A stretch of 64,000 bases of DNA from Amphiscolops sp. MND2022 (taxonomy: Eukaryota). The stretch is from positions 24,492,001-24,556,000 of the forward strand of contig OZ076409.1 of assembly GCA_964187785.1 (NCBI GenBank), written 5' to 3'. The translations under genes were made by a program, and so were the position numbers. Positions 1-64,000 of this stretch are shown here, one piece after another. The notes below the pieces were generated by a model, which saw only the letters and a list, made by a program, of their open reading frames with translations, was not told the origin of the DNA and did no database searches. Within the stretch, counting starts at the first letter, position 1, and every line of letters starts with the position of its first letter.

Positions 1-1066
1 CCTCAGTCTTTAAATGATACAGTTGGATCCCACGCAGATCAAACAACGTCAACATTGACAAACAAAACCCTTTGACCCAGTTAATCAAATTGCACAAGCA
101 ATCGAGAAACCGGCCAATAAAAACCCCCAACAATCACTTTTTCACCCGAAAAACACATTGACATTCAATGGAAAAAACGAGAAATTCGAATACTTTGAAG
201 ACCTGTTTCATACAACACTTCGCATGCAGCCGAATCTAACAGAGGAAATGAAAATTAACCACTTTTATGCACACCTCAGAGGTTTGGCATTAAAAACATT
301 CAAAAACATACAAAGAACGCCATCTACCACACTGGAAGACATTCTAAAAGTCTTTCGCAGAAAATACGTGAAACCAGAATCCAGTGCCTCAGCAAAGCAC
401 CGATTCAATAGACTTTTCTTTGACCCCGAAAACCAAAAACTACCGGATTTCCTTGAAGAACTCCAAGAAAGTGCTGAAAAAGCTTTCGGAGATAACGCAC
501 ACCAGATGATAGAGAACCTACTCTATGCAAAGATGCCCCCTCACCTTAAAAAAATCCATCAACCAAGCATATCTCGAGAACGGCACATACGACCAGATCG
601 TTAAACATCTCGAGAGGGAGATGGAGCTAAATGGTTTGGAAGCAGACGAAACCTCGGTCAAGACCCAAATGACCGTCACCAAAAAAGAACAAAATGCTGA
701 AAAACCAACTAAAAAACAAAATGAGAAGTCTAAAGCTCAGACTCCAAAAACAGTACCTAACAAAACACTTAAAAATGACCAATGCCGGTACTGCAAGGAG
801 ACGGGTCATATGATGGCTGACTGCCCCAATCTATTAAAACGGCGTAAACTTGAAGAGGACCCGGATGCAGAAAAATGCCAAAACTGCAATACACCAGGTC
901 ATGAGGAAGACAACTGCTACTTCGGCGCCAACATGGATAACCGACCACCAAAGTGGAACCTCACAGAAGCCCAAAAGAAGGTTATCGAAGCGCACAAACA
1001 AGCTAGAAACCTATAAAACCAAAAATAGATTGACCTCAACAATCCTCTTCCAAGGATTTAAACTAA
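1..1066 (+). pseudogene. gag: Gypsy gag (capsid plus two CCHC zinc knuckles), frameshifted
   Basis: ORFs 158-604 and 525-1016; knuckles CRYCKETGHMMADC and CQNCNTPGHEEDNC; probable original C-terminus ...QQSSSKDLN* with TAA at 1064-1066. Confidence 0.9.
1057..1066 (+). promoter_or_regulatory. Putative -1 ribosomal frameshift slippery site (T TTA AAC) at the gag/pol junction
   Basis: GAT TTA AAC TAA ends the gag frame; the -1 frame continues FKLKTSRLSK (ORF 850-1152). Confidence 0.7.
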
Positions 1067-4000
1067 AAACGTCACGCCTTAGCAAACAAAACGCCCAAAT
1101 AACAACTACAAAACCACAAGGGTCAAGTGGATACAATAAACATACAACTTAAACAACTGAATACAGAACCAGACTACACACCTCAAACACACAATCAACC
1201 CGAAAACGATGAACCCCCACAAGAATCATACTATGAACTCATGAAAGATGCTCCCGACAAGTATTTTTCAGACAATACTCAAACCTCCCCTGTACCTACA
1301 GACAATTGACCAGAAATTCATCACCCGAGTACTTTCTCTTGCAATGAACAAAAACAACCCCTTTTAGATGAAGATATCACAAACCACGTCCAGCTTGACC
1401 AGGAACGCAACCTGTCAAACCTACCTATGTCAACCTCGCTAACATTGAAACGAAAACGTCACATGTACTACATGCCAATGGACTTCGAAAAACTCACACT
1501 TGACGGACTCATTGACACAGGAGCCCTGACTAGTGCAATCTCCGAACAAGACCTTAACAAAACCAAATTAATTGCAAATGAAGCAATAAAAGATACTGGC
1601 CTACCGCCAAATTTCCAAATTATGGTGGCCAATGGTCAACTAGAGGTACCAATCGGCACAGTACTACCCACTCATTGGTCTCTGCTTCCTTCGAAGAAAC
1701 AATGCAGTTTTTGATGTCACACAAGGCATCCTAACTTTTCCATACCTCTCAATGCAATTAAAACCAGACACACAAGTAACTATGCGTCAAGCAACACCAT
1801 TGTTTGCTAAAAATACATACACCCTCCAACCAGGCGAAACCCTCGCCATAGCAAGCAGAATGCCCCACCTGTTAGACCACGATGCAACAGGAATAGTCAC
1901 ACCTTCACCACAATTCGAAAGCCACGACAGCATTTTCATCACATCGTCACTTAGTACGGTCAACAATAATGCTATCGGGTACCAAGTAATCAACTCTTCA
2001 GAACTTCCATAAACAATAGTTTGTGACACCCATCTAGCAGACTTTAAAAACCTCACACCAGAAATAATCAAACATATACAACCTATAGATCCAGCGATGT
2101 TGTCATTCATGATACAACATGAGGAAACAACCGAGATCTACATAAATGAACTGCTGAAAGTTCCTTCACAAAACCCCGAACAAGAATCTTATTGGTTCCC
2201 AACACCAGAAGAACCAGGGGATCCTACAACGTATACCCCAGTCCAACAACGAATAACTCGAGCTCAAAGAACTTGAACAACTCAACCCACAAGACAATGC
2301 AAAATCAAGAAAAGCTTTTCTCTCGAATATAGACTGGACTGACACAACGTTCAGCCAAGAAGAACAGAAACAAATTGAAGAAATCCTCATTGAGTTTCAT
2401 GATATTTTTGCCAGATACCGATTCGACATTGGCACCAATCGTGAATTCAAGGTTAAACTCACACCAAACGATGATCGACCAGCCTACAGCCAAAGTTTGC
2501 CAACACCAATCAACCTCAAAGATGACATTACCGTAGAACTAGCACTTCTACACAAATATGGAATCATAAAAACCCTACCTTTTTCAAAATACGCTAGTCC
2601 AATCTTTGCACAACGCAAACCAAACGAACGCCTCAGACTACTTGTGGATCTCAGAAAAATCAACAATTTAATCACTGAAGACTACATCAACAATACCCAC
2701 CCGGTAAGCACACTGTCGGATGCAGCACAACATTTGGCAGGCAAGAAACTTTTCTGCAAATTAGACTGCTCCCAAACTTACCACTGCCTTCAAATGGCAG
2801 ACTACCAATCTATTCAGATGCTTGCTTTCAACTTTGCAAGCCGAACCTTTGCTTATCGTCGACTTGCTCAAGGCCTTAGCAGATCTCTCTAGGCGTTTTC
2901 TAGCTTCATGAGGGAGTACCTTGACAAGGCGATCAAGGTTGACCAATGTGCACAGTACGTCGATGACATTGGTATAGCAGCAAATGACTTAAAACAGTTA
3001 TGCGCCAATATCAGGACGGTCTTTGAATGCATCCGAAATGCTGGTCTAAAACTTACAATGTCCAAATGTCATTTCGGAGTCAAGCAAGTAGACTTTCTAG
3101 GCCGCACAATCACACCTGTTGGCGTGGCCCCTCAAGCTGACAAGTCAAAGATTTCCTGGCGAAATTGAGATTCCCCGAATCCAAAAAAGCACTCCAAAGG
3201 TACATAGGATTTCCTAAACTATTACCGCAATTACATCCCGAGACTCTCTGAACGTCTCTCTCCATTTTTCAAACTCCTCAAAGAAACCTCCAAATTCTAT
3301 GTACCCACGAACTTGGTGGAAGACTTCACCAACCTAAACAAACTTCTCGAAAATTCTTGCCAATTAGCTTTGAGACAACCTCTCAAAGACAAACAACTCA
3401 TAGTCATGTCTGATGCAAGCTTTACAGCAGCAGGATATGCTATCATGCTAGAAGTCGATCCCAGCCAAAAACTCCAGTCAAAACGCAAAACATATGAACC
3501 TATAGCATTTGGTTCGAAAACCTTCAACCCAACACAAACCAAATTGTCGATCTATGCAAAAGAATTCCTTTCCATATACTTTGCTTTTGTTGAATTCGGT
3601 CACCTCATGTGGGGAAGCACTTTCCCAGTCATAGTGTTCACCGACAACAGATCTGTAACCCGCTTTTTTCAAGCAAAACTCATTCCTCCAAAACTTTGGA
3701 ACGCATGCGATTATGTCCTACAATACAATTTTGTCATTGCCCATGTTGCTGGTTCAATGAATACGGCGGCGGATTTCCTATCCAGAATGGAAGTCAACCC
3801 AGTTGAAAAACTTGAAATGAGCATAAGAAACGATATCCAAACCAAAACGATAGAAGTCAATATACAATCTTCTGGTATTGTGGAAGAAGAACAAATCTAC
3901 ATCCTCCGCGACGATGAATTTGATGAAAACAAACTTTGGGAAGAAAAACAAAACGTGAGAAATCAAGCTCAAACTGAAACTCACAATGATCCAGAAAACA

Positions 4001-5750
4001 ATGTTACTGAACTTCAACAGTTCCACAAACCGACATCAGGCTTAAACACATGCTCTGAAGGGCATTTTCGAGACAATGCCAGAATCAGACTCGAACAAAA
4101 CAATGACATTGTCCTTAGGAACCTCAGAGCTAAAATAGAAGGAAACCCCTTTGATGAAAACGACTTGGCATCTGATTACAGATATCAGCATTACCTCCAA
4201 AACATAACCAGAATCGAAATCAAGCAAGAGATTCTAACGAGAAGGTACTACACAGACACAGGAACCACTTCGCACTATCAGATTTTGTTACCAAAACAAC
4301 TCCTAGAAGAACTACTTCAAGCCTTACACGGTCACAACTCAAACCATCCGGGTATCACAAAGATGATACAAGAAGTAAGGCAGAAATACTACTACCCTTG
4401 TATTGCAAAATACATTAAAAAATGGGTGAGTAATTGCCAAACCTGCATACAAACCAAAAGGATCAATAATGACCTCCTCAGGACCGAACTACTTAATTGC
4501 CCAGAATGGGATCTCGGCCCAGAATTGCCCAGAATGGGATCTCGGCCATTCTTCAAATGGACATTCTACCAAACCTACCACCCAGCGCTGGATATGACCA
4601 TATAATAACAGCGATCGATGTTTTCTCTCGATACCTGTTTGCATATCCAGTGACCCGCATCACTGCAACATCAGTAGCCAGAGTGATAATGGACATAGTA
4701 TGCAAACATACATACCTTCCAACAACAATCATCACAGATCTTGGCACACAATTCAATGCTCAAGTAACCCATGAAGTTACAGCCGTCCTAGGCGTTGAGC
4801 TAAAACACGCAACAATGAAACACGCCCAAACAATAGGACTTCTGGAAAGAACCCATGCTTCAGTCAAAACCCAACTCAAAGCAGCAACTGGAGAATTCCG
4901 ACATATTTGGCATAAGTTTCTCCCGTTAGCAGTACTAAACCACAACACAACCTATCATGCATCGCTTGGTTGCGAGCCTTCACGAGTTTTTCATGGCCGC
5001 ATCCCTCACAACATACTGGATTACAAGTTAGGATACAATCCTAATCCGAAATATCAACCCCAAACTGACGTTGCAGAAGAAATACAACGACGAATGAGAA
5101 TACTTTTAGACCAAACCAAAAAAACATAATGCAATCCTATCTCAAATACAAAGCCTATTACGATAGGAAAGCAAAAGCATCACCGTTAGAAACAACCGAC
5201 TACTGCTACATTTTAAACCCGAAAGCTGACACACAAGCAACAAAAATACCGTTTCGGGAATTCAGATGGCAGGGTCCTTACAAAGTCGAAAAAGTCCTTC
5301 CTAATAACAATTATATAGTTAGGAGACTGGGAACAAATGAAACACAACTTTTACATAGAATCAGGTTGAGAAAATTCACACCGCAAGCACAGTTAGCCGA
5401 TATTTTTGTACCCAATTACTGATGACATTGAATATGTACCAGTTGAAGTACCTGAAAATAATCACCCTCCTTCCCCCGAATTTCCAAAATATAGTGGGGG
5501 GAGCCCAGTGGAACAGACCACTGAACGCAAAGAAGAAAACTGTGATGAAAATCTACAAAAAATTCAAGATGAAGAATCAGAAATATCCCAAAAAACCCCA
5601 AAAGAAAATACACCAGAAGCCCAAACCCAAAAAACCCCAGAAAAGTCAGAAAATACCCCATTGCAAGAACAACCCATAAATACTCGTGGTGAAAAATATA
5701 ACTTACGACCTAAACCCAACCCAAACTTTTCTGACTCTTATAGATACTAG
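1057..5750 (+). pseudogene. pol: Gypsy pol: aspartic protease, reverse transcriptase, RNase H, integrase; many frameshifts and stops
   Basis: LIDTGA (protease, ORF 1427-1714); YASPIF..RLLVDLRKIN and QYVDDI (RT, 2497-3168); MSDAS..SIYAKE..FTDNR (RNase H); HGHNSNHPG...CQTC zinc finger; LQMD/TDLG/LLER DDE core; WQGPYKV (GPY/F); terminal KYNLRPKP. Confidence 0.95.
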
Positions 5751-6015
5751 AAAAACAGATTGAAGGTGATCATTCTTCTGTTGGTCTATACTCGCCGACT
5801 ATGCTTCTTTTCGTTCAATTCAGATCGTTGATAAACACAAAACATTCGTCCCAATAATACAGTGGATGGATAAATAAATACAACGATGAAAAACTATATA
5901 ACGCGAAACAAGAGAACTCAAAAAGAAACTAGAAGAAATGTTTCTCAGTCTTTCTCCCCTTTAGTCCCTTTAGACTTGGCTTTCTGGTTAGCGGAATTGT
6001 CACCTGCACAACTAG

Positions 6016-9000
6016 TCAGAGAGAGAGAGTAGCTTTTCCCAAAACTGAGCGAGGCGATGGAGAACTGTTACTAGTAGTGGAACCACTGCCACAAGTGATA
6101 TCTCCGTCATCTGGTAGCTTCTTATTATCAGGAGCCACAACTGAACGCTTGTATGCACTTTCAAACTTGGTGCAAAGAGTTGACCTTTTTGCTCCATTAC
6201 CCCTCAAAAAATTCCATGTGGAAAGTTCACGGTCCTCCAGAATCTCCTTCCCTCTTCCTAGTAGTCGAAAGACTCTTGAAATGGTGCGGGGATCCTGGTA
6301 CAAGCTGGAGACTTTGGGCACTGTAGAGTATGAAAGCTGTATAGCCCCTATACAAGATCGGAATGATTCCTCATCAGTACCCAACTCGGGTATCGGGGTT
6401 ACCAAGGCTGCTGGGATCTGTACCAACGGGGGAAGACACAAACTAGATAGCTTGAATAACTTATGTAACTCAGGCCGGCATTGCAATTCGTAATGAGAGA
6501 CGAGGAATTGAAACCAATCCTCAACTTGTCTCATGTTGACAGTCCGGAATTTTGACACAATAGATCGATACTGGCTGACCGACTTTGTTTTCTCACTGAG
6601 GTTCAACCACCCAATCTGCACGAAATGACCAGTGAGACACTCAACGGCGGCAACATACTGGTCCTCGGATCCATGTAACTTAACTCCAGAGTCGACACAT
6701 GCAAGCCCTCGAATTAGATCGGATTTAATAATTTCGTGGGACAGCAATCTCCCACAGAATGCCTTGCAGATTGAAATAGTTTGTTCAACGAAATTACCAG
6801 GCCTAGGAAGTTTGATTGTACTGACGAGATTGTGGTATTCGGAATTCAGAATGAACTCATCTGGAGACTTGAAGGGAAGATTGGGTTGACTCAGGTCGAC
6901 ACTCAAATACTTCTCCCAATCGGAAATGCTACCAAGGAAACTGTCGGGTAAAATGTTTTGTAATTGACTATATACAAAATTGGCGTACTGATTATACAAT
7001 CGAAATCCGGCACCAAATTGATCACAGACCTCAGTGAAGGCTGAGTTATCTGAAACACATGAGAAGGTCGGTCAAAAGTCTCCAATAAATGAAACAATCC
7101 TTCACCATCCTACGCTTTTACTTGAATGATTATACATAACTATGCGGATTCCAGCCGGTGACTACGCGTCACTATGCGGATTTCAGCAAATGATTATACA
7201 CAACTATGCGGATTCCAGCAAATGATTACACACAACTATGCGGATTACAGCTGGAGACTATGTGATCACTGTGCGGATTTGAGCAAACGATCATACGCCA
7301 CTATACGTCTTTCGATTATTGCACAAGCTGCACTACGGGGTATTTACAATTAATAAAAGCACGTGCCTACTCTAGAGTGTAGTCATTCATCATTATGCGA
7401 GTTTCTGAAAACGAGTATGAGTCATCATTCGGTTTTGGTCTACAATCATGCGTTACTATGCGGAATTTACAATGGTGAATATACGACACCATACTGAATC
7501 CTGGAATCAATTACAATCCTACAAGGTGAAAAGAAATGTATGCTGAAGAAAAATCCAAGGTTTTGGGAAATCAACCTAGAGAAAATAATTGCAAGCACTT
7601 CTAATTAAAAGAAAACAGAAGTTTTAATACAAAGAGCGAAATAGAAAAACAACTTTAGTCTCTGCACTAACAGTGATCGAGGACACATCTGATGATAAAT
7701 AGCCGTGCCAAATAAGTGGTATCAAGACGAAAACACTCGTCGAGGGTACTGGGCTGGAAACATAAAGAATGTATTAGATGAATAGATGCTTGCACAATGC
7801 GGATTATGGGAGGTAGATACTGAACTCTCTCATATGAAACCGATAGGACGGCAATCGGGACACACGATTAAGGTGGTCCAAGACTTTATCCCAGTGGCAG
7901 GATAACAGTTCAATCAAGATGGATGCTTCCCGAGGAGAATAGGAGAGATCCAAGACGCACTGAAATACAAAAAGAATCGAGCCTCAAAAGAAACATGTAG
8001 TCTATTTTAAAAGAGTACTTAATAATGAAAATAGTTCAAGTACCTTGTGTAAGGTTGGGAGAGACTGTAGCCAATCCCGGTCCAAGGCTGTGCGGAGTTT
8101 CATTAGAAGGAAGTCAAGGATCGTACGGTAATCGTGCCTTTCCAAAATTCTTGAAGTAGGGAGAGCAAGACATCTCTCCAGCTCATTTTGTCCAAAACCA
8201 TTGACGGAAGTAACTCGATATTTTCCGGGCAGAGAAGTTTTGAGACTGGAATTTAGCCTGTCAGGACAATTAACAAGGCTGACGCATGAAATGGAAGATT
8301 CGAAGAGACTAAGAAATGATGCGATGAAGTTGATAATCCTCTTGGGAATAAAGGTTCCTCTCGGTCCGGTGCCGAAGCAAATTTGGTAAAAGACATTACC
8401 AGGCCAAAAGTTGACGAAAACATGAGTGGTAAACTGGTTACTCTGGAAAGAAAGGGAGTAAGACCCGGAGGTTGTAATGGACGTGACCCCATAACTCAAC
8501 AATTCGCGGTACATGAAGACAAGTATAGCCTGCGAACATAATACTATTTACACCAGGAATATGTACTATAGTGAAAAAACAAAAATATAGAAATTACTCA
8601 CAAATAACCGTTGTCGTTCCCAACTGAAGGAGGAAGCTTGAGAGTTTCCAGGGAATAAGCGAACTGTCTCATTCCACATCCCAATAAGACTGTCAATGTG
8701 CCCACCATGACGTAACCCATGCTCTAGAATACGGATCTGAGAAATGACGTCTTCGCTTGGGCTGGACGTAGTGGTAAAATCCGGTAATTTGTCCTGCCCA
8801 ACCATCAATCTACAAACATCTAACTGGGGGGCGATAGGGTAGGTCTCTTTTGCTGTTCGTCTGGCGGCCAATAGAGTGTTCCCTGTCAGCTCTTTTTCAA
8901 ACTTGTCGTAGAGGGGAAATCCTGGAATTTCAAGTCTAATGCGATGTTCTTTGACGAGATGGGAGTCGGTTTTGAAATGTGATAAAAACTCAAGAACACC

Positions 9001-9955
9001 CCTACTCATTAATGACAGCTCCACTCGGCACACACGACACCACCATTTATAGGGAGTCTTGTTCCGATCAATTGGCCCGGTGGCAAAATATTTCAAAACA
9101 GGATGCTTACGCAGCATGTGGACTCTCAACGAGTACTTTGGCCGTTGTCGCTTTGTCCTGACATTAAGGGCTTCATCGCAACTAGATAAAGTGTCGACAT
9201 TCTCTTGACAGAGTCCCGTATCCATAGGATCGATGTTTTGAACGACACCTTTATCCGGAGATTGGGGGGATCTTCAATCACCTTCAGTGTAATGTTATCT
9301 GACTCGTCCACCTCAGTCTGACTGATCAGCTCCTGCGGAATTCTGCCTAATACACTTGAAAGGGTGAAGGCTTCTTGCCGTGTGATAACTAGTTCTTGTG
9401 GTGTCGCAGTAGAGGGTCCTGATGTTTCCACTTTGAGATTTGGAGCCTCATTCTGTTCAGGCTCACCTGAATGTTCGGGGGATTTTCCCCAGAAACCACC
9501 TCGGGGCGCTCAGTTGGATCGGAAGCATCTTCGGAGCGTAAGAGAAATGCAGTAAATCGGGGTGAATTGGATTGAGAGACGGGTGGCGTAACGGTGTTTT
9601 CCGGATTACCCATTATTTTTGGATCACTAAAACTCATCAATGAAAGATCCGGTAACGCCGGAGAGATCTCAATTACTGACGGTTCAGCCTCTTCATTATC
9701 CGCTCTATCGGAATTTTCGAGATCGTGGATAACGAGTTGACCGGGTGAAAAGGAGGTGTCGAGTTCGTCAGCTAACACTTGTTCAATCCCGTCGTTAGTC
9801 TTTGGTGGCGTACTATTGGAGGGTTGAACCAGTGAGGATGGTCCAGCAACAGGGAGTTCAGCTACCTGAAGGGGAATATAGGTCCTGGTTGGGGACCAGG
9901 CAGGCGACTTTAGCGATGATCCAAGTTCAACTAAAACAAGTGGGTTTTTTATCAA
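6016..9955 (-). pseudogene. Antisense spliced gene: BED-type zinc finger, hAT-transposase-like protein, with frameshifts
   Basis: Consecutive minus-strand ORFs 9389-9955, 9126-9431, 8566-9225, 8002-8514, 6903-7097, 6016-6999; WWCRVCRVELSLMSRGVLEFLSHFKTDSH finger; C-terminal W...PELHKLFKLSSLCLP resembles the hAT dimerisation region; frame-preserving GT-AG introns 8530-8601 and 7960-8043. Confidence 0.6.
7128..7300 (+). repeat. Tandem array, ~32-nt unit (GATTAYRCAYAACTATGCGGATTYCAGC...)
   Basis: About 5 diverged units with ACTATGCGGATT core; degenerate copies continue to ~7490. Confidence 0.85.
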
Positions 9956-10704
9956 GATGAACCACGAATCAAACCACGATCAATAATTTCCGCTAAATAA
10001 TAGACTTAAACCGGACGCGGTGGAAGGAAATTAAAGTGGGCGGAAGTGATTGATATCAAACCAAAAGCTTAGCTGCTTCAAAAATTCAAACATGATCTGA
10101 AGAAGATCGACTTTATTGAATAGTCTGGCCAACTATTTAATTAAAACTCTTTTCTGATCAGATAATCCAAATCAAAATTCGAATTTCTGAAACAAACTAT
10201 GAAGTGAACTTACGTGGAATAATCGCAGTAGGTGACTTGTAACCCCAAGAAGTGAGCTGTTGCCGCGGAGTTTGTTGTTGTCTTGACTTCCTCCGGTCGA
10301 GAGAATCCATGGTATCGCTAATCCGGCTGATAATCTCAGAGAATACAAATGGAGAATTAGAAATGAAACTTTAATGATGTGAAACGAAAGAAGAGTAGAT
10401 CGATGACCGAAGGAAAGAATGAAACTTTCTATCTGAAACTAAAAAGACTGCAACTGAAATTAATACATACTAGAAACACAAAAGACTGCAATTATGTACG
10501 AAATTAACAAGTTGACGTTGAAATTCAATAGAAGCCGTGGCGTTAAACGAAAGGCAAAAAGCAAATGAATGCTGAAATTTGCGCATTAATCCAGAAAATA
10601 CTCTAATCTGATTGGTCAATTAATTACCGTCCATTACTGCCAGAATGGACGATTACGTAATTATCAAAATTAGCAACCGGTCAACGATGCAAATCTCATG
10701 AATG

Positions 10705-10945
10705 GCCACCATGCGGCATGGAGAGGAATTTCACCACTGCCTGTGCGGCAGTATGCGAAAACGACTTTATCAATAAAGCGACAGTATGCGGAACTTTGCA
10801 ACTGCATATGCGTCAGAATACTGAAAGCCGCCACTACACATGCGGCAGTATGCGGAAATCCACAACTGCATATGCGGTAGTACACGGAAAATCACCACTA
10901 CACATACGGCAGCATGCGGATAATTGCAACAGCATGTGCGGCATT
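10705..10945 (+). repeat. Tandem array, ~31-32-nt unit with CATATGCGGCAGTATGCGGAA core
   Basis: Repeated ATGCGG motifs at regular spacing. Confidence 0.8.
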
Positions 10946-11752
10946 GTACAGATAACCAATCACGCGCTGAAAGCTATGTCTGCATGTTTTAAAGGACATA
11001 CACGATCTAACTCCAATTTCTTACGATGTTGTGATGTTCAGTAGTTAACACTAGCTACAGAATATGCGAGAATGATGATCTATTAACAGAATACGTTTTT
11101 ATGCATGCCAGCTCAGGCAAACCGAAAGAAAATGAAAGATAAACTAGACTTGATGCGCTTTTACCTTTTGAGATATAACGCATTTTTCAAGTGCGGGACT
11201 CGAAACAAAACTTTGATGAACTATGGGTAAATGTGATATTTCACAAAATTTAAAATTTCAGTCCTGAAAAACTTCATTCATAAATGTAAACCTCAGTCAT
11301 GTAAAACTAGATATGTATATCAATTTTCACTTAATTTCTCCATCAATGGAAATTATTAGTCATGAAATCCTTTGAAGTTAGTTTAGTTATGATTTTGTTT
11401 ATATCTCATTGAAATGGTTCAACACTGTCAAGCGTCTTGGGTGAAGATGAGATTCTCCCTGAAAGCTGAAGAAACACCTAAAATGGAAGATGTTTATATC
11501 GAATTAAAATGAAACTTGATAATTTTCGCGGATTCAACAAGTTCTATCACAGAAATGACCCTATAAGGAAAACGAAGAACCCCGAAATCATGACACCCAG
11601 TTATTCCGCGGGGTTTTGTTACAAGCGAGAGAAACGGAAAAGACAATCACCATATGGTCTTTTGACTCGTCCAAAAGCAGTAACTCCAACTAAAACGAAA
11701 ACTACCTTTAAACCTTACTTGAGGAAATCATCCTGCAACATAAGAAGAGAAC

Positions 11753-12811
11753 ATGAACAACCTGCAATTTACCCTTGAAGATAGCCCTTTGCTCTCAATT
11801 CAATCTCCTGGGATTGTAGATATATCAAGCGATTCAGGAGAAGAAATTGTCGTTCATCCGAATGATCTGTCCGACGTGGAGGAAAGATTCAGGGTTGGTG
11901 GACCAAGATCGGATATGTTGACGGCATTCGTGGGTGCAACTTCGGCAACCCTTTTCACATCCGGACCAGAAGACTCCTCAATTGTTGAGACAATTGACAC
12001 TGCTGGGACACAAATTGAGCGGCAGATGATGGAAATCATCGAGGAGCATCAATTCAGTAGAGGGTCTTCATCAACTTCATTCATTGATACGGAGCTGGAA
12101 GACTCACCCATGTCGCCATGGGAGTCGGCTCAACCTTCGACACGACCTGTAAACAGCTACGGGAGGCCAGCTGCGGCAATCCTCCTTACACCAAGAAGCA
12201 ACAACCACGAGACGACAGTGATCAATAGACCCATTCCTACTTACCCGCCTAATTTTGCAAATACTTACCCAATTTATCAACCCCAACAAATCACTGACCC
12301 TAGACATCAGCAAGCAGATCACCCTCTCAACGGTATCCAGCCAAGGACATTGGGCAACAGTGGAGCCTTCTCCGCTAACCCTAATGGTTTGCCTATATAT
12401 AATAATGCACCAATAATGATCCAGATACCTCCCCATGAAGGAAGCGCCAATGCTTCACAATTGAATACTGGACCTAATGCTGGACCCTCCCCTCACTTCC
12501 CGTTCCAAGCGGGACATAGTACAAATATACTGCTCTTGCCCTTTCAAGAAAGACTGCAATATCGACTTTTGCCCCCAGTAATGACAAACGTCGCTGGATT
12601 TTGCGATTGGTGTGGTAAATGCTACGATTTGATAGCACTCGAGACACTGGGAGAGTACCTTATTGCAACCGTTTACGACGGGGAGACGGTCAGGGACAGA
12701 GGTGTCAGGTCCCGTGCCTTTATAGATGGGTTCGAGGCTGCACTGTTCTCCTTTGAAGGTGCGGGACTGTCGCAGCCTCATGGGTGCTTTGGGTCTGTTC
12801 TGCAAGAGTAA
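11753..12811 (+). CDS. Intact 352-aa ORF of unknown function: acidic/Ser/Pro-rich N-terminus, C-terminal CDWCGKC motif and predicted helical domain
   Basis: Uninterrupted ATG-TAA ORF with coding-like composition inside the putative retroelement 3' region; no family recognised. Confidence 0.6.
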   Translation: MNNLQFTLEDSPLLSIQSPGIVDISSDSGEEIVVHPNDLSDVEERFRVGGPRSDMLTAFVGATSATLFTSGPEDSSIVETIDTAGTQIERQMMEIIEEHQFSRGSSSTSFIDTELEDSPMSPWESAQPSTRPVNSYGRPAAAILLTPRSNNHETTVINRPIPTYPPNFANTYPIYQPQQITDPRHQQADHPLNGIQPRTLGNSGAFSANPNGLPIYNNAPIMIQIPPHEGSANASQLNTGPNAGPSPHFPFQAGHSTNILLLPFQERLQYRLLPPVMTNVAGFCDWCGKCYDLIALETLGEYLIATVYDGETVRDRGVRSRAFIDGFEAALFSFEGAGLSQPHGCFGSVLQE

Positions 12812-13127
12812 AAAGGAAAACGAAGAAGCAGCCTGAAAGACAAACTCAATTTGATGAAACTCAATAAACTGCCTCCCCCCTTTTTATTTCTTTGCTTTTA
12901 TTGTCTCGTTGTTTACCCTAATCAATGAGTTAAGTCAGGTAAATACTCATTTTATAGTTTCTTTGGTTGAATTGTGGAAGCCAGATGCGAATTAAGACAT
13001 GTTGACCAGGCTTTCCTAACTTTTCACCCTAGTTTTTGCTTGAAATATTGAGTTGTTTAGTTGAATTTAGGCAATAACTTCTGAATGGAAGCAATGATTA
13101 TTCTAAACGTGACCTTTTAAATCAATG

Positions 13128-13460
13128 AGTATGCGTCACAGTACGAAAATGTGAAAATGAATACACTTCTTTATGCTGTTTGTGATTAATAATTATGCAC
13201 CATTATGCGGAAAATTTCTGACGCATATACTGCAATATGCGGATTTTAACCACCGCTTATGCGGCACCATGCGGAAAACAGTAAATTCCTTGATACGTTG
13301 TCACGGTGATATTTGCACGTCACTATGCGGAAAATCGCCGGCGCTTATGCGTCAATATGCGGTTTCCCGCGTTTTCCATCATACGGTGCTTTACTATTAT
13401 TATATTGTGATTATTCGTTGATATGCGGAAATTTGAGACCGTATATACGTCATTGTGCAG
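13128..13460 (+). repeat. Tandem array of TATGCGG-containing ~31-32-nt units
   Basis: Repeated ATGCGTCA/TATGCGGAAA motifs related to the arrays at 7128 and 10705. Confidence 0.75.
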
Positions 13461-13601
13461 TTTTCCAGGGTTTTTGTCGTAGCTGTACAAAACTTGTTTC
13501 TGCTTGTCATGCAATGTATAATTAGAGTTATAAATAGAATTACGACACATGATGTAATTCTTTTTATAGAATATGAAGACCATGACACCCATAAAAACGG
13601 G

Positions 13602-14456
13602 TGTAATCCCCACCATTTTTTCCTTGTGCTCAGGACCTTAGACCCCAATTATTCTTTGGAATAACTCTCGTTGAAAACAGTTGATAAAACCCACACTCCA
13701 AACCACTGTAAAAGCAGTTTCTCATAACCAACAGTTGTCTCATTTTCCAATTTGCTTTGTTGAAATTCTCAGCTCAATTCAAATTCTTCCCCAGCAAACC
13801 CAACACGTTTTTCACTTGAAAACAATGGGAAATAAGAGAAACAGTTTTTTTGTAGCTCAAGTCCTTGTTTGGTAGAAGCTAATCAACCGCGTTCTGTAGA
13901 CTTTAGATGATCTTGAGATCGCTTTTGGACGGCACCATAGGTAAAAGGTCACTTGGTTTATTGCATTTGGTCACTTGGCCTCAATTTCAAAGCCAGGCGT
14001 CTTGGTGAATGGTCACTTAGCTTCAAACCATTTAGCTGAAAACAACTATTCATCCCTATTCATATGTTCACATACTCTAGTGCTCTGAATGCAAAGGTAG
14101 AGCGATAGCGAGGCCTCAATGTTGCTACTTGGCGAAGAGTGCGAAGCGACCGAGACATACAACAAACATGCTATCCTCATCATATATATTCAAACGTTCC
14201 TTTCTTGAACATTTCGCTAAAATTCATTTCAGTCTTTAAAAAGTCGTTTTTAGGCATTGCTTTAGTCAGAATGGACTTGGCTTAATTTTATGGCCATTTG
14301 GCCTTAAAATATTAGGCCAGATGACACGAGAAAAAACTTAAGCCAAATGACTTCCAGCCCAGTGACTTTTAACCTTCCATAGGGTAGGACCATAGCCTCT
14401 GTTTGGAATAATGTAGCTGAGTTCAGCGTTTTCAGAGAAAAGGCACGGCTCTTACA
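13602..14456 (+). repeat. Candidate 3' LTR (interrupted by a MITE)
   Basis: Begins TGTAA after purine-rich ATAAAAACGGG and ends TTACA (5-bp terminal inverted repeat); partner LTR is outside the window. Confidence 0.45.
13942..14376. mobile_element. MITE with GGTCACTTGG / CCAAATGAC arms and shared core B
   Basis: Imperfect inverted ends; CCATAGG direct repeat at 13935-13941 and 14377-14383; diverged core CATATGTTCACATACTCTAGTGC...GCGAAGCGACCGAG at ~14061-14166. Confidence 0.6.
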
Positions 14457-15034
14457 GTGGCTGGTTGTATCTCCAGTAGCTGTGATCCATCCACTCTTTC
14501 AGAGAACAGATGGAGAGCTGATTCTACAGATCGGATGATGATATCTAGAGATGGCAAGGTACCGGTACGGTCCAAAGGCGGTACTGGTACATACCGGTAC
14601 ATGAACCGGTACTTATGTTTAAAGATAAGACAAAACAGTCATTGTTTCACAATAACGTTTTATTCCAGGTCAGAATCATAATCATGACTCAAGTAATCAT
14701 TACCGTCTTTTGGATCAAGCATTATGTAGTTGGTATAAATGAATACAAGCTTTCAAACGTTTTCATTCAGGAGTCTGTACGCCTCTATGAACTGTTACTA
14801 GGCCTATGACCAATTGGGTAGTCAGTCAACGTATAAATTGATGTTATCATAAATGACGACGCAATAACTATTACATGTGGTAACTACACTGGTACGTGGG
14901 CACTAACTGCGATCTAGATCAAAAGATCGAATCGCACTCCTTTAACTTAGATAAAAATGTCACTTTTCGTAACTAAGGTCTAGAGAATGCCAGCTCCCGA
15001 ATCGTAACCAACTGTGAAGTGATAAAAAGTATAA

Positions 15035-15246
15035 AACGTGCCGCGGATATGTCCCCATTTCCTCTAGTGCCCCGCGTCCCCTTTTGGCTGGTTACGTTCC
15101 CATTTTGCTAAGCGAGGCCGAGCAAGAGCAAAGATCTAGCGGGAAAGGAGGTCGCGAAGCAATCGTAGTGAGAGCTGGGCTTTGTGACGGTGAGGGAGAT
15201 CGTGCATCCACAGCATATGCCCTACATTACGACACTTTGCTTTCAG
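15035..15246 (+). repeat. Dispersed repeat core A (GGATATGTCCCCATTTCCTCTAGTGCCCCGCG...)
   Basis: Homologous to 18110-18325 (-), 21915-22130 (+) and 22615-22830 (+). Confidence 0.85.
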
Positions 15247-17930: not shown

Positions 17931-18491
17931 GAGTGTACGCCTTTGATCTAATTCATTAGGTCTAATGGAATTAGATCTAACTTTCAGATCTAATTTAGGT
18001 CTAACTTTAGGTCTAATTTTCAGATCTAATTCAGGTCTAACTTTAGGTCTAACTTTCAGATCTAATTTTATCTAAAATACTTAGTCAAACCCCTTTATGA
18101 TCTAATATGTGTTCTGAAAGCGAAAACATAATGTGGGGCATGTGCGATGTATGCACGCTCGCCCTCACCGTCGCAAAGACCAGCTCCCGCTACGATCGCT
18201 TCGCGATCCCCGTTCCCACTAGGTCTTTGCTCCTGTTCGACCTCGCTTAGCAAGATGGGAAAATAGGCGGCCCCAAGTGGCCGCGGGGCACTAGAGGAAA
18301 TGGGGACATATCCGAGGCACGTTTATACTTCATGTCACTTTTTAGTTTTAGATCCTCATTGACTTATTGTTTTTCTCAAATTAGATCAAATTAGAATAGA
18401 TTTTTAGACCTGATTATTTAGATCAATTTTTTATATCTCAGTTTTGCTTCCTGTCTTAGATCTCTTTCATTAGACCTGCTTCCACGCATCT
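17931..18491. mobile_element. MITE (MULE-like) with AGRTCTAA / TTAGAYCT arms, core A, 9-bp TSD
   Basis: CCTGCTAGG at 17922-17930 and 18492-18500; arms built from short repeats in opposite orientation. Confidence 0.8.
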
Positions 18492-18833: not shown

Positions 18834-21250
18834 TTTTTTTTATAGCTGCTTTGATATAAAATTCAAAAAAATTAGGCTATATGTAATAAATTTCTTCGAA
18901 CGCATCTCTGTCGCTCACAGTTCATAGAACACAGGCCGCATTGCCGATCTGAAGAGCCATTGAAATCCGTTGCTTCAAAAAGCAGCCAGCTCGTTGATCG
19001 TCGTGCGAACGACAGAGCATTTTACAGAGACGCGTGATGAACTTTTCACTGCTCTCGCCTAAAGAACCCTGTATTTCCAAGGCCACTGGCTGAAAAATGT
19101 ATCCATTGTCTATTAATTCGCGATACGTCTCAATTTTACGCGCTTCAGCCTCGGTGGCGGTGGTTCCCCGGTTGCATAAAGAGCCTTGATTCAGGCGACT
19201 GGGTGCAAGAGCATACACAACCGTGACATCCCACACCAGCTGTTTACCCATTTCCCAAGGAATCATGGTAACACCGTCTGGGCGTTTGCCATCAGTTCGG
19301 TACAGTCCACGCGGTTCGAGCATTGAAGGCAAGTCGAGAGATCCCAACGTCTGCTTTATGCGGGAATTGAGAGTAGCATGACGTGAGAAGCGACCAGCAC
19401 TCTTAGTGCAAGAAAGGACGTGTAAACCGTCCCGTTCAACTCTTTTACCACAGTGGCACGTATGCGCAACGCAGATGTTGGCACCGAAACGCAAACCAAT
19501 TGAAATTCGAAGTTGCTGATCACCAAGTTTCAGGCCTAGGTTCTTGCAAGGAACGACGTTCAGCCATTGAGACCCGAATTTGCCTTGATGAGCGTTGAAA
19601 ACTCTCGAACGTTTGTCATCCATTCTAGAAATCAAATCTTGGGCGGTTTTGACGTAGACAGGTTGTGTCCAACTTTTCTGAGTTCCATCGACAGGACTTT
19701 CCTGTTCATTCGTCAAACTCAACCACTTCTCAAGCGCTTTTGTAAACGAAACATCTTCGAATGTTTCCGAGAAAATCATCGTGAGAAAGTCACTCGCACC
19801 AAAAGCTGAGGCCAAAAAGGCGGGAAGTGCTAATAATGATGCGGATGAAACCCCAAGACCACCCATCTCAGCAGGCAGAGCCAGCTGAGTACTCGAAATA
19901 TCGTCGAAGTTCACGTTACACACTTTGGAAAGTCCGTCGCGCACTTTTTGGAAAGTTTTTGGAAAGATGCTAAAACTGTCGATCGTCGTTTATCAGTGAT
20001 GTCACCAGGGAAAAAAATTTCACATTTCGTGTGTTTAATTTTGAGTCCCAACATTCTTTCCGCTTCAACAATTTTTTTGAGATCTTCCAAAACGGTTCGG
20101 TAATCATCACTTAAATTTTCATCGTCAAGGTACCATAAGTTTATTTTCGACTCCAAACTGTCAATCAGATCCTGAATGGAATCCGAAAACAAAGCTGGAG
20201 ACTCAGGATGACCTTGCTGGGTCCCTTCACAAGATTTGATTACTGAATCACCGTAGAAAAGAAAACTTGGCTGACTGTACGCAGAGTTTGAATACTTATA
20301 AACTTCAGGGTGTATTTCAAAAACTTTCTCTAGCATGAATTGCCGGTTTATCGAATTGAAAGCGTTTTCAAAGTCAATTTTCAAAATTACGTTTTCTTTG
20401 GGCTGAGAGCTTTCTATCAAACAACGGAAAACATGTGAGGCCAATTCAGCGCCCCTTTTGGAACCTACACCTACTTGTCGATTTCCATATCTTGTTTGAC
20501 GTGATTCGAAGACATGGTATCCGGCACATTTTGCGGACAATCGGCGGAAAGTATTGCCTACATCGAAGTCTTCCATCGGGCTTTTTTAGCGCAATTAGTT
20601 TCGCACCAAAGAAGTACGGCCGAAGTTCGAAAGGTACTTTTCCTTCAAGAATCACATTCACAAGATTTGCCTACTGCCATTCTGATTCCGGCCTTAACAT
20701 TACCTTCGTCTAATTTAGTGCAAATGGAACGCAGTCGTCGATCTAACTCGCTTTTCTGCTGCGGTTTTCTGTCGCGTTTCGGTTTTTTCTCACTGACACC
20801 ATCCCGAATACGCTTGTTGATAATTGCACTAAGTGATGACCTCTGACGTTTACCTCCTCGAGGTGGTTTTTCCAAAAAATAGCTTAGAGAGGAGAGCAGT
20901 AAGCACCACAAGGCAATATTTGACAGGGTTTCACAAATATCATTAATTTTTGGTATCAAATTTTCAGCTAGGGGGATCCGTGAACTTTTAGGAACTCTTT
21001 TCAAGTGAACAACGCCTGAATTAAAATGGGTGTCTGGTCTAAAGTTATCATCCTGACACTGAGGGATTGTGTTCACTAAAGAACACCTACTACATTTAAA
21101 TTCGGCAAGATTCCGGGCTTCCGTTCTTGATAAATTGGCGCATTTTATGTGAACCCATCCGTTGCAAAGCCTACAATTTATCCAGTCTATCAACCCTGAG
21201 GGCTTCAGACACTTCGGAGCGTTGCAGGTTTCGTTGTTTTTCATCACAAC
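18834..21250 (-). mobile_element. Non-LTR retrotransposon, CRE-like clade (PHD finger - RT - zinc knuckle - restriction-like endonuclease), decayed
   Basis: PHD CNAPKC...WINCRLCNGWVHIKC...FKCSRC; RT LKIDFENAFN, GTQQG, WYLDD; CHC...HVLSC; RPDG...WDVTV endonuclease; reading ends ...FEEIYYI* (TAG 18877-18879) with a short 3' UTR and A-tail at 18834-18841. Confidence 0.85.
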
Positions 21251-21623: not shown

Positions 21624-22967
21624 GGGGTACAAGACATATTGCTTAATTCCATATTGCCTAATGCCATATTGCTTAATGCCATATTGCTTAATTTTGTGGG
21701 GTACAAGACATATTGCTTAATTCCTTATTGCTTAATGCCATATTGTTTAATTTTGTGGACATATTGCTTAATAATTTTTAAGCAATATGGATAATGCCAT
21801 ATTGCTTAAGTTTGTGGACTTATTGCTTAATAATTTTTAAGCAATATGGATGTGTTTTCACATTGAGTATTGAGTGATGAATCGAGTAATGCGTCGGATC
21901 TAAGTGACACTTATAACACGTGCCTCGGATATGTCCCCATTTCCTCTAGTGGCCCGCGGCCCCTTGGGGCCGCTTATATTCCCATCTTGCTAAGCGAGGT
22001 CGAACAGGAGCAAAGACCTAGCGGGAACGGAGATCGCGAAGCGATCGTAGTGGGAGCTGGTCTTTGCGACGGTGAGGGCGAGCGTGCATACATCGCATAT
22101 GCCCCACATTATATTTTCGCTTTCAGAACACGTATTTGATCATAAAGGCGTTAGACCTAATTATTTTAGATGAAATTAGATCTGAAAGTTAGACCTACCG
22201 TTAAATCTAATTCCATACGACACATATCATACTCAGAACACATATTAGATCATAAGACCTATTAGATCATATTAGACCTAAGGTCCATATTGTACTGTAC
22301 TAGGTCCATATTGCTTAAAATGATGTCCATATTGCTTAAAATGATGTCCATATTGCTTAAATTGATGTCCATATTGCTTAAAAAATTTAAGCAATTCGTA
22401 CATGGTCGATTTTTAAGCAATATGGCATTAAGCAATATGACTTGAAGCCATTTTGTGGACATATTGCTGAATAATTTTTAAGCAATATGGATAATGCCAT
22501 ATTGCTTAATTTTGTGGACATATTGCTTAATAATTTTTAAGCAATATGGATGTGTTTTCACATTGAGTAATGAGTGATGAATCGAGTAATGCGTCGGATC
22601 TAAGTGACACTTATAACACGTGCCTCGGATATGTCCCCATTTCCTCTAGTGCCCGCGGCCCCTTGGTGCTGCTTATATTCTCATCTTGCTAAGCGAGGTC
22701 GAACAGGAGCAAAGACCTAGCGGGAACGGAGATCGCGAAGCGATCGTAGTGGGAGCTGGTCTTTGCGACGGTGAGGGCGAGCGTGCATACATCGCATATG
22801 CCCCACATTATATTTTCGCTTTCAGAACACATATTAGATCATAAAGGCGTTAGACCTAAGTATTTTAGATAAAATTAGATCTGAAAGTTAGACGAACCGT
22901 TTAATCTAATTCCATACGACACATATCATACTCAGAACACATATTAGATCATAAGACCTATTAGATC
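21624..22967. repeat. Foldback-like element with CCATATTGCTTAA arm repeats and core A, tandemly duplicated (~700-nt period), running into the gap
   Basis: GTGTTTTCACATTGAGTA at 21852 and 22552; many ATATTGCTTAA / TTAAGCAATAT motifs. Confidence 0.8.
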
Positions 22968-53300: not shown

Positions 53301-53989
53301 TCTGCCAGAAGAGTGTGACATTTGCTACCTCTTTCAACTTTAAGACCTTATTTCTGGTCCTCTGTGATAGGTACGCGTTTCTTTTTTCAAAGCAAATTCG
53401 AATCGACTATAGACTGGTCGGTTGAGTTTGAAATCCCATTATCAGCCAGAAGGCCATTAATATCTCTGAAACCATTCGCGATTCTGACATGATGCACTAG
53501 TACTTCTTGATGGCGTTCTCCTGGCGTTCTCCCTCTTGTGGACTTACTTCTCGCTAAAGTCACTTCTTAGTTCTATCCTAAATGATTTGGTGTGAAACTA
53601 TTATTCTTTACAAGCCTCGAGCTAAGCACTTTAGCGCCTGTTTTTATTCGGCGCTTCATCAAGTGAAACGAGACTATAATAGTGACTTTTTTCAATCCAC
53701 ACAAACTGTCCAAAATAGTTCTACAAAGTCCTACGTTATTTTAAGGTGTCAAATTTGACCATTTGGCCCAGGGAACTGAACAATAAAGGGTGTTCCTTTT
53801 TTTCAGCGTAACATACAATAGACTAAAGGTTCCACCTTTCAGTTTTTCCGGAAAATTTTATGTTGCCAGAGGGTCTCCCCTTCTTCTTTTTGATAATTTG
53901 CAACAGAATGGATGTTGAAAAATGACAGAGGGTCCCCCTCTTACATTTTTCGGCACTATGACACTGTTCATTACACTTGCGATAAGCAA

Positions 53990-56900
53990 GTGTTATGGGA
54001 AAGTGCGGGTGCTTTTTTTCCGCGCGACAACTCTCGTTTCAGCCCGCAAGTCGCAAAATTCAGCCGTTCGTGGTCTAGTGATAAGATGCTTGCTTTTCAA
54101 CGCACACTGTTCGTGTTCGAAGCCGTGCGTATGCGCTAATTTTTTTACAACTGTTTCGAAGCAGAAGGTTTCACTTTTTTCGGAACTTGAGACCCCCCCT
54201 TTCGGCTTTGAGGGACTTTTTTTGATTTTTTAATGTCCCCAAAGGGTTCTCCCTTCAATTTTTTGATATTTTGCAACAGAACGAATATTAAAAAATCCCA
54301 AAGGGTCCCTTCTTTCAGATTTTTCGCACTGTGAGACTGTTAGAAATTCTCATTTTTTCGAAAATTTTTCAAAGTCTTCAAAGGGTCCCCTTCAAAGTTT
54401 TGCAAAAGAATGGATGTTAAAAAACTCAAAGAGCCCCCGTTATAGTTTTCGGCATTGTAAGATTTTCCAAAGTGAATAATTTTTGTCTTAAAATTAGGTT
54501 TTCTCAGGCCCAGCACGCTATATCCGATTTTTGTTTGTTTTCAAAGACCGGCGTTTTTTTATGCGACTATTTTTCTAATTTGTTTTCATCGAACCCCCCT
54601 CAATTTTTACTAGAAACGAAACGTTTTGCGAGCATGAAGGACTGCTCAAGGTTTTCGTGCACTTAGCGACTTACCGGAGACCTTCGAAAAATTTTGTCGA
54701 AAAACTTCGAAAGCAATTTTCCTCAATTTTCTGTTTTTTAATGGATTTCGGTTGAGAAAGCTGGGTTTTTTACTGGTTCCAGTTGGAGAAGAATGGTTTT
54801 CGATTTTACCCTTTGTTCTCCGTATGATATTGCTTATTTGGTTTTCTTCAAAAAATTCGCAACTTTCTTCGCAAGTGTTTGCGAAGCACGGCTTCGCCTC
54901 TGTGTCAAAAAAATTTTGTAGAAAATTTTTAAATGTCTCCAAAGGGCCCCCTTCGTTTTTTTGCAACCCGATTTCCAAAGGGTCCGCCCTTTTACAATTT
55001 TTTAAAACTTTAACTTTGCGCTTTTTGAGCCTTAGATATAGTCCGATTTTAGATGTCTTATTTACAATAGCACGTGTGACGCTTGTTTCTGTAGGCCTCT
55101 ACTGTGTGCGGATTAAATTCTGTGGGATTTTTTAAAAACCAGTTGAAGCGTTCACATTGTTTAATCAACTCCAAGGGGTCCCTTTCAAATTTTTTGATGG
55201 TTTGCAACAGAATGGATGTTAAAAAATCCGAAAGGGTCACCCATTTAGCGCGCCGATTCGGTCCAATTTTTTTTGGGTTTTTCGGGTTCTGTAGAAGAAG
55301 ACTTGACGCTATTTTTGAGCCTTAGATATGGCGCCGACTTATACCGACATACTTATATATGGCGCTGTTCCTTGTTTTCTTGTTTTCTTGCGTAGTTGTG
55401 TAGTGGTATTGCTATGATGAAAAAGCATTCAGTGGAGGACACAAGAAAAGAGCGACGATGAGCAATCGGACATTTGTGACTTTGAGCAACTCACTTCGAT
55501 ATCACAGCTTCAAGCCGGCAATCGTTTTACTCTAGCTCATAAACAAGTTGTTTTTTTCTTTTTAAAAAAGTAGGTATAAATTGAACTAAAAGTTTCAAAT
55601 TTCGGGCGACAAAGATCCTTCTCCTCAGCGGGTCTCTTGTGTAAAATCAAAATTGCCAGTTTTCTCTAAATAACCGCTTCATGCTTCTTTGGTAGAAATA
55701 TTGATTGTAGATCGACAAAATTAAACGACAAAACAATCATCTACTTAGGAGACTTGTTTAATAGAGGAAGTTTTGCAGTATATCATACACGCTCAAGTCC
55801 TAAACTGTCGGTAAAATAAATCAGGGCGGCCAATATTCCGGTGCTTCTAACATTGGGAAAAACAAGTGGGATAGATTTTATTCGAAACTTAACTGCCTTG
55901 ACAGAACTGAACGCGGATAGCAGCATACTATATACTACTTCCTTTATTCGAATGGAAAAGTTTTTTCCTTTATTCGAGTTTTCAAGGTTCACTGAGACTT
56001 TCTAGTTTTGTGCTTTTGTTGCAAGATTCAAAATACGAATGTGTTATGGGAAAGTGCGGGTGCTTTTTTTCCGCGCGACAACTCTCGTTTCAGCCCGCAA
56101 GTCGCAAAATTCAGCCGTTCGTGGTCTAGTGATAAGATGCTTGCTTTTCAACGCACATTGTTCGTGTTCGAAGCCGTGCGTATGCGCTAATTTTTTTACA
56201 ACTGTTTCGAAGCAGAAGGTTTTCACTTTTTCGGAACTTGAGACCCTCCCTTTCGGCTTTGAGAGACTTTTTCGATTTTTTAATGTCCCCAAAGGGTTCT
56301 CCCTTCAATTTTTTGATATTTTGCAACAGAACGAATATTAAAAAATCCCAAAGGGCCCCTTCTTTCAGATTTTTCGCACTGTGAGACTGTTAGAAATTCT
56401 CATTTTTTCGAAAATTTTTCAAAGTCTTCAAAGGGTCCCCTTCAAAGTTTTGCAAAAGAATGGATGTTAAAAAACTCAAAGAGCCCCCGTTATAGTTTTC
56501 GGCATTGTAAGATTTTCCAGAGTGAATAATTTTTGTCTTAAAATTAGGTTTTCTCAGGCCCAGCACGCTATATCCGATTTTTGTTTGTTTTCAAAGACAG
56601 GCGTTTTTTTATGCGACTATTTTTCTAATTTGTTTCCATCGAACCCCCCTGAATTTTTACTAGAAACGAAACGTTTTGCGAGCATGAAGGTTTTCGTGCA
56701 CTTAGCGTCTTACCGGAGACCTTCTTCGAAAAATTTTGTCGAAAACTTCGAAAACAATTTTCCTCAATTTTCTGTTTTTTAATGGATTTCGGTTGAGAAA
56801 GCTGGGTTTTTTACTGGTTCCAGTTAGAGAAGAATGGTTTTCGATTTTACCCTTTGTTCTCCGTATGATATTGCTTATTTGGTTTTCTTCAAAAATTCGC

Positions 56901-62900: not shown

Positions 62901-64000
62901 GAAAACAATTTTCCTCAATTTTCTGTTTTTTAATGGATTTCGGTTGAGAAAGCTGGGTTTTTTACTGGTTCCAGTTAGAGAAGAATGGTTTTCGATTTTA
63001 CCCTTTGTTCTCCGTATGATATTGCTTATTTGGTTTTCTTCAAAAATTCGCAACTTTCTTCGCAAGTGTTTGCGAAGCACGGCTTCGCCTCTGTGTCAAA
63101 AAAATTTTGTCGAAAATTTTTGAATGTCTCCAAAGGACCCCCTTCGTTTTTTTGCAACCGGATTCCCAAAGGGTCCGCCCTTTTACAATTTTGAAAACTT
63201 TAACTTTCCGCTTTTTGAGCCTTGGATATAGTCCGATTTTAGATGTCTTATTTACAATAGCACGTGTGACGCTTGTCTCTGTAGGCCTCTACTGTGTGCG
63301 GATTAAATTCTGTGGGATTTTTTAAAAACCAGTTGAAGCGTTGACATTGTTTAATCAACTCCAAAGGGTCCCTCTCAAATTTTTTGATGGTTTGCAACAG
63401 AATGGATGTTAAAAAATCCGAAAGGGTCACCCATTTAGCGCGCCGATTCGGTCCAATTTTTTGGGGGGTTTTTCGGGTTCTGTAAAAGAAGACTTGACGC
63501 TATTTTTGAGCCTTAGATATGGCGCCGACTTATACCGACATACTTATATATGGCGCCGTTCCTTGTTTTCTTGTTTTCTTGCGTAGTTGTGTAGTGGTAT
63601 TGCTATGATGAAAAAGCATTCAGTGGAGGACACAAGAAAAGAGCGACGGTGAGCAATCAGACATTTGTGACTTTGAGCAACTCACTTCGATATCACAGCT
63701 TCAAGCCGGCAATCGTTTTACTCTAGCTCATAAACAAGTTGTTTTTTCATAAACCAGTTGGTTTTCTTTGAAAAATTAGGTATAATTTGAACTAAAAGTT
63801 TCAAATTTCGGGCGACAAAGATCCTGCTCCTCAGCGGGTCTCTTGTGTAAAATCAAAATTGCCAGTTTTTTCTAAATAACCGTTTCGTGCTTCTTTGGTA
63901 GAAATATTGATTGTTTTCGTAGATCGACAGAATTAAACGACAAAGCAATCATATACTTAGGAGACTTGTTTAATAGAGGAAGTTTTGCAGTATATCACCC
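53990..64000 (+). repeat. Tandem array of a ~2.05-kb unit (4 full copies plus 1 partial; continues past the window)
   Basis: Unit start GTGTTATGGGAAAGTGCGGG at 53990, 56041, 58101, 60154, 62192; each unit contains a HINE-like body and 3' end. Confidence 0.97.

Follow-up and report, generated by a model that had tools for sequence, protein, structure and literature searches.

The stretch analysed here (the window) comprises 64,000 nucleotides of Amphiscolops sp. MND2022 (contig OZ076409.1, positions 24,492,001 to 24,556,000 of the forward strand). Its left part holds a decayed member of a multicopy clade of Gypsy retrotransposons with long terminal repeats (LTRs); in this copy gag, pol and the exons of an antisense gene are broken (Table 1). 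The first-pass annotation had proposed a Gypsy element of more than 14.5 kb with a non-env module of two divergent genes, and this central inference holds: the final pol frame has its stop at 5750, the minus-strand frame ends at 6016, and the divergent plus-strand open reading frame (ORF), ORF352, has 352 codons, all as first described. No LTR separates pol from the antisense gene, which is true of every copy.

Table 1. Features of the window copy; negative positions lie upstream of the window
Feature	Position	Strand	Basis	Remarks
5' LTR remnant, then primer binding site (PBS)	-1408 to -47 (G000:C1)		Comparison with full copies	
gag	59-1016	+	Pfam	Capsid-like region and CCHC knuckle; frameshifted
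pol (protease, reverse transcriptase, RNase H, integrase)	1057-5750	+	Pfam	Several frameshifts and stops
Predicted exon 6	6016-7049	-		All-helical, aligns to Hermes 243-609; early stop
ATGCGG array, predicted intron 5	7125-7313	+		32-bp array
Predicted exon 5	7672-7753	-		82 nt
Predicted exon 4	7825-7959	-		135 nt; non-canonical donor site
Predicted exon 3	8044-8529	-		486 nt; RNase H-like fold, aligns to Hermes 153-265
Predicted exon 2	8602-9930	-		Low-complexity region, basic patch, BED-like Cx2Cx16Hx5H finger; frameshifted
Predicted exon 1	10214-10310	-		ATG, basic stretch, WGYKS motif
ATGCGG array, divergent intergenic region	10711-10943	+		Likely promoter region
ORF352	11753-12811	+		Acidic low-complexity N-part, conserved C-terminal CxxC domain
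Likely polypurine tract (PPT)	12752-12767	+		Purine-rich, directly before the 3' LTR, inside ORF352
3' LTR remnant	12768-13844	+	Genome matches, comparison with full copies	3' part missing
ATGCGG array, LTR	13204-13430	+		

The Pfam families recovered from pol (asp protease, RVT_1, RT_RNaseH, Integrase_H2C2, rve and Integrase_p58_C) stand in Gypsy order, and gag gives weak matches to Retrotrans_gag/Ty3_capsid (E 0.006-0.008) and a match to zf-CCHC (E 3.6e-6). By the features tested, namely domain order, LTRs with target site duplications (TSDs), PBS and PPT, the element is a Ty3/Gypsy LTR retrotransposon and not a hAT transposon; for its reverse transcriptase (RT) only a weak PDB match was obtained (E 1.6e-6). 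A TTTAAAC heptamer (1057-1063) where gag and pol overlap is a candidate site of ribosomal frameshifting, the pol of fuller copies being in the -1 frame. Coding sequence extends into both LTRs: the gag frame of fuller copies opens inside the 5' LTR (in L011:9463-9953 about 490 nt within it, from where it runs through the PBS), and the last 14 codons of ORF352 lie in the 3' LTR, which the frame enters by 44 nt (compare window positions 13825-13844).

The boundaries are not those first annotated. A TGTAA...TTACA segment at 13602-14456 had been taken for the LTR; only bases 1-285 of a query spanning 13560-14500 recur in the genome, often paired 14-15 kb apart, with one just upstream of the window. 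In full copies the LTRs start at the position equivalent to 12768, within ORF352 near its 3' end, and stop immediately before the PBS. The LTR and the PPT had both been misplaced. Instead of about 7.8 kb, the cargo measures 7.0 kb from the pol stop to the LTR, and the third of the arrays described below sits within the LTR. Positions 13845-14456 are flank, shared with other places only through an unrelated repeat of about 80-125 bp. The partner LTR upstream of gag was found, and the two remnants are 97.1% identical over 894 nt; the missing outer LTR parts of the window copy were found neither in the 10 kb upstream nor in the window. An exact 5-bp TSD, within the 4-6 bp proposed at first, exists in other copies, whereas the window copy lacks both outer ends. 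Paired TG...CA LTRs had both ends located by script in 30 of 40 loci, 25 of which carry the exact 5-bp TSD at the TGTC start, one more being doubtful. The PBS matches over 12 nt, including the CCA, the 3' end of a tRNA in the genome that Rfam detected and ARAGORN missed, and which we read from the alignment as an intron-bearing Leu(CAA). Genes resembling an intron-bearing tRNA-Leu(CAA), with a 3' end that fits the PBS, form a tandem array on G000:C8 from 35587798, repeating about every 296 bp; genome-wide the tRNA 3' motif is matched 817 times, and of the 100 matches listed most fall in this array.

A DNA search with ORF352 gave 41 matches from 40 of 607 candidates scored. Six of the nine ORF352-matched loci examined are complete, with pol, antisense gene, ORF352 and LTR collinear as anticipated; two are missing their 5' part, and in the ninth, an internal deletion derivative (L028-L029, G000:C7:48.64 Mb), gag is fused directly to ORF352 and the LTR. 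With the last antisense exon, 116 matches were scored, 52-100% identical and mostly free of internal stops. Among 20 loci across that range, pol lies upstream in 19, an ORF352 homologue is present in 19 and an LTR pair in 18; in the exception the PBS stands directly before the cargo and gag-pol is missing. At G000:C12:47.06-47.09 Mb (L066-L067, L123), a PBS without gag-pol precedes an intact-looking cargo, followed in tandem by LTR, PBS and gag, and another related Gypsy element is inserted upstream of this derivative. Ten loci chosen through distant database homologues are without exception Gypsy elements in which the gene follows pol in antisense orientation. Eight of them make up a sister clade whose RT is 71-74% identical and whose cargo only profiles detect (E 1e-8 to 1e-21). 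In this clade (L102-L113, L118-L119) a single frame covers exons 3 and 4, and the sense ORF that ends at the start of the 3' LTR is another one, acidic too (about 190-280 aa, with a Cys/Gly/Arg tail) and not matched by the ORF352 profile.

Because these loci were chosen by cargo, we also took every 12th of the first 100 listed PBS sites (n = 9). Integrase (IN) was in place at four, antisense cargo at four (three with both), and neither at four; the cargo at these sites is a third, more distant type. The PBS counts (1,517 and 3,542) were rejected as copy numbers, given the four of nine sites with neither. One locus with the same PBS (L124) has an integrase 58% identical and different downstream frames, 1239-1760 (-) and 3779-4576 (+), which no cargo profile matched; it is possibly another cargo type or a cargo-less relative. 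The best matches of three database homologues among the scored candidates in the genome reach only 29%, 28% and 48%, which suggests that the family exists in other genomes too.

The minus-strand frame was rightly noted at first, and its predicted six-exon splicing, likely hAT origin and module swapping were overlooked. GT-AG sites are conserved at fixed codon positions across copies, and the predicted spliced product, from a gene with five introns, has about 1,050-1,100 aa, with basic patches at both ends. Its Cx2Cx16Hx5H finger is near-invariant, with upstream aromatics, and gave no match to Pfam zf-BED. The BED-like finger, a putative RNase H-like core and a putative helical insertion, the last two by alignment to Hermes, are predicted in hAT order, and the gene likely descends from a captured hAT transposase. 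The Hermes catalytic residues are D180, D248 and E572 (PMC2533014). In our alignment D occupies the corresponding columns, placed by eye, in 2 of 110 and 31 of 110 rows, and no conserved E follows CLP; the protein is likely catalytically dead, judging from these residues. Pfam assigned no significant family to the cargo genes and no hAT family to 45 of the 150 listed distant homologues. Foldseek found nothing for exon 6 at E<0.001, ESM Atlas no usable match for exon 6 or ORF352, and PDB profile searches were blank or at chance level; hhalign of four cargo profiles against a shallow alignment of frames from the genome's hAT loci was negative. A free-standing progenitor, sought with three distant homologues, led only to further Gypsy elements, and no catalytically intact donor was found.

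Could the module be a passive nested insertion, a DNA transposon or host locus carried without function? Nested insertions are common, and the cargo of the window copy is broken. However, the module has the same position and orientation in all sampled copies, across both clades despite their RT divergence, its frames are mostly open, its dN/dS (non-synonymous relative to synonymous change) is low and its splice sites are conserved. There was no free-standing copy in 39 other loci around cargo matches. In the sampled loci the block was not found with its own terminal inverted repeats (TIRs) and TSD or as a single-copy host locus, its homologues always having an LTR-element context; among the 25 longest pairs listed there is no long inverted repeat bracketing 5751-12767, and the TIRs and 8-bp TSD of a hAT transposon were not found around the module, which always lies within LTR elements. 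We therefore regard a passive passenger as very improbable.

ORF352 has no transmembrane segment (maximum 19-aa hydropathy 0.96) and no env family match in Pfam, and the element is not an errantivirus or other env-bearing Gypsy. ORF352 is possibly a partner of the antisense protein.

The three related TATGCGG arrays first reported are present, at about 7125-7250, 10778-10943 and 13204-13430. The window holds 42 occurrences of TATGCG, compared with 15.05 +/- 3.56 in shuffles, none of 100 reaching 42; of these occurrences, 21 fall in 7141-13427 and 10 are part of an unrelated satellite at 54-63 kb. Array statistics were computed on 24 of 30 near-clade loci, leaving out the window copy and five incomplete or offset loci. 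ATGCGG density is 5.77 per kb in the three zones versus 0.027 per kb in pol, and at least two sites are found in the last intron of 23 loci, in the intergenic region of 24 and in the LTR of 20, with dominant spacings of 32, 10 and 22 bp. The arrays thus occupy three fixed non-coding places. The sister clade has a different finger and lacks these arrays.

The preferred reading, to which we give an even chance, is that a dead hAT transposase has been kept on as a multimeric regulator that binds DNA at the ATGCGG arrays of its own element, by analogy with the binding of BED domains to subterminal repeats (PMC10368747) and with VANC, which binds tandem motifs in introns and upstream regions (PMC5735166). 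The same arrays admit two other readings. One is a circuit resembling that of complex retroviruses: bZIP-type factors of the host would occupy the arrays, ORF352 would act as a transactivator of the Tax/Tas kind, and the antisense protein would play an HBZ-like part, as a negative regulator or copy-number brake. Human T-cell leukaemia virus type 1 (HTLV-1), with pX/HBZ, and lentiviruses, with nef, offer precedents for an antisense gene that is spliced, an accessory sense ORF that extends into the 3' LTR, and repeated U3 elements. ACGTCA/TGACGT sites do cluster in the array zones, near-clade arrays also containing ACGTCA, and GACGTCA is the top 7-mer in three of eight sister-clade loci; ORF352 is acidic (26 acidic versus 6 basic residues in the first 140 aa) and is swapped as one with the U3 part of the LTR. 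Yet ORF352 has no similarity to any known transactivator in Pfam and profile searches, near-clade ATGCGG is far more regular than ACGTCA, and the antisense protein retains its near-invariant finger. Unlike HTLV-1 and the lentiviruses, the element lacks env and any sequence relation to them, and its antisense promoter is likely internal. We consider such a circuit unlikely. Less likely again is that the hAT-derived protein acts after transcription, binding the LTR arrays of the cDNA and chaperoning or tethering the pre-integration complex (nuclear import or target choice): transposases bind element ends, each LTR has one array and the protein carries basic patches at both ends, but two of the three arrays are internal (intron and promoter region), which better fits chromatin-level control, and no target-site preference is evident in the TSDs, as seen without a statistical test.

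The element genes are under purifying selection. On pairs with synonymous divergence (pS) of 0.15-0.70, dN/dS is 0.030 for RT (131 pairs) and 0.092 for IN (89 pairs); the antisense exons have values of 0.11-0.17 (3-5 pairs each) and ORF352 one of 0.23 (15 pairs). In more than 90% of the antisense pairs pS exceeds 0.6, close to or at saturation. Two copies are 96-100% identical in pol and 95-98% in ORF352 and LTR, yet only 42-65% identical in the antisense gene, while another has the window's antisense type but ORF352/U3 only 63-74% identical. These clashing identities, and the presence of two antisense types and two ORF352 types in each of the four possible combinations, identify the antisense gene and ORF352 as independently exchanged cassettes. 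Copies grouped by RT and IN trees split with high support in exon trees, in an informal comparison of the trees, the ORF352 tree being a quick tree only. Each cargo gene has been exchanged between backbones, likely by template switching. Such alleles could form a self/non-self or conflict system (subfamily interference, or escape from small-RNA or protein defence), the arrays being incidental. Antisense alleles with saturated pS of about 0.9 on backbones with RT pS of 0.03, together with the four combinations, would suit this idea. However, free reassortment of both genes speaks against a matched toxin-antidote pair, and template switching between co-packaged RNAs yields such mosaics without selection; we rate this idea as improbable, slightly more so than the pre-integration role.

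Under the regulator reading, an ancestral element probably took up an intron-bearing hAT transposase gene in reverse, which would have lost its TIRs and catalytic acids and kept finger and fold. On the genomic RNA the introns would be antisense and hence hidden from splicing, which would let them pass through reverse transcription; in this orientation the gene would need a promoter of its own, lying between 10310 and 11753 and serving ORF352 in the divergent direction, a step we hold with slightly more confidence than the uptake itself. It is a little better than an even guess that the protein is nuclear and forms multimers on the arrays at their 10/22/32 bp spacing, in the manner of Hermes BED domains on subterminal repeats (PMC10368747). 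That the outcome is activation or anti-silencing, not repression of element transcription, falls just short of even overall. The whole account is more tentative still: an ancient Gypsy lineage may have domesticated a whole DNA-transposase gene, antisense and keeping its spliceosomal introns, that now serves as a sequence-specific anti-silencing or transactivating factor for the element's own LTR arrays and is exchanged as deep allelic cassettes, maybe explaining spread to thousands of sites.

Elsewhere in the window, two minus-strand frames (355 and 224 aa) at 18922-20585 resemble the RT and restriction-like endonuclease of a non-LTR element; the one scanned had no significant Pfam match. About five tandem copies of a unit of about 2,050 bp, 95-100% alike in places, fill 53982-64000, with shorter relatives at 29-47 kb. 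A dispersed repeat of about 200-240 bp, resembling a miniature inverted-repeat transposable element or a short interspersed element, occurs in both orientations at 15030-15229, 18084-18324, 21912-22156 and 22611-22855.

In function the element appears to work most like the plant Retand/Grande elements. As described in PMC7264820 and PMC11963269, Retand/Tat Gypsy elements (Grande gene23, RIRE2, Retand) likewise have a long region between pol and 3' LTR with conserved antisense ORFs, tandem arrays and an internal promoter, and a DNA-binding regulatory role has been proposed for these ORFs, as here. Most carry 'Transposase_28' (TRP28), whose role is reported as unknown and which is said to be confined to flowering plants (PMC7264820, PMC11963269). 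The plant ORFs are described as without similarity to other transposable elements and of unknown origin (PMC7264820), and 'intron' has no occurrence in the Retand paper (PMC11963269). Unlike them, the gene studied here encodes a protein of about 1,050 aa, with five introns and a predicted hAT fold, beside a divergent sense ORF; Pfam found no Transposase_28 (PF04195) in it, so the element is not a Retand. The predicted order of BED-like finger, putative RNase H-like core and putative helical insertion would match that of hAT transposases such as Hermes (PMC10368747), as would short repeated motifs as likely binding sites, but the gene lacks surrounding TIRs, an 8-bp TSD and a conserved DDE. VANC of VANDAL/MuDR (PMC5735166) is similarly a fast-evolving accessory protein beside a conserved core, with target motifs in tandem repeats within introns and upstream regions; it belongs to a plant DNA transposon and is MAIN/PMD-related (PMC13547354), and anti-silencing here is a proposal by analogy. 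Among animals, bdelloid Juno/Vesta ORF3 (PMC5408684), planarian Burro (PMC6431247) and errantivirus env also add family-specific genes to a Gypsy backbone; as far as these sources and an annelid survey (PMC8220671) go, their cargo consists of env, GDSL, DEDDy or apoptosis domains, none being an antisense intron-bearing transposase. No LTR element carrying an antisense, spliced gene of hAT descent came up in literature searches; a consensus entry may exist in Repbase, Dfam, GyDB, closed journals or supplements. LTR elements with accessory genes are known, and this element is a new variety among them, with a specific, testable origin and function.

In host-domesticated ZBED-type genes the domesticator is the host. 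Transposase domestication is known for host genomes; here a retrotransposon appears to be the domesticator. This suggests how intron-bearing genes might persist in an element that replicates through RNA, and provides a concrete origin and testable function for an antisense accessory gene, a matter listed as open for plants (PMC7264820). The predicted cargo genes could readily be mis-annotated as host genes. A ready test system is at hand, with a single predicted finger, a single short motif repeated in three arrays and a wealth of natural alleles; if the proposal is true, this would be a VANC-like system built from a hAT transposase, in a retroelement outside plants.

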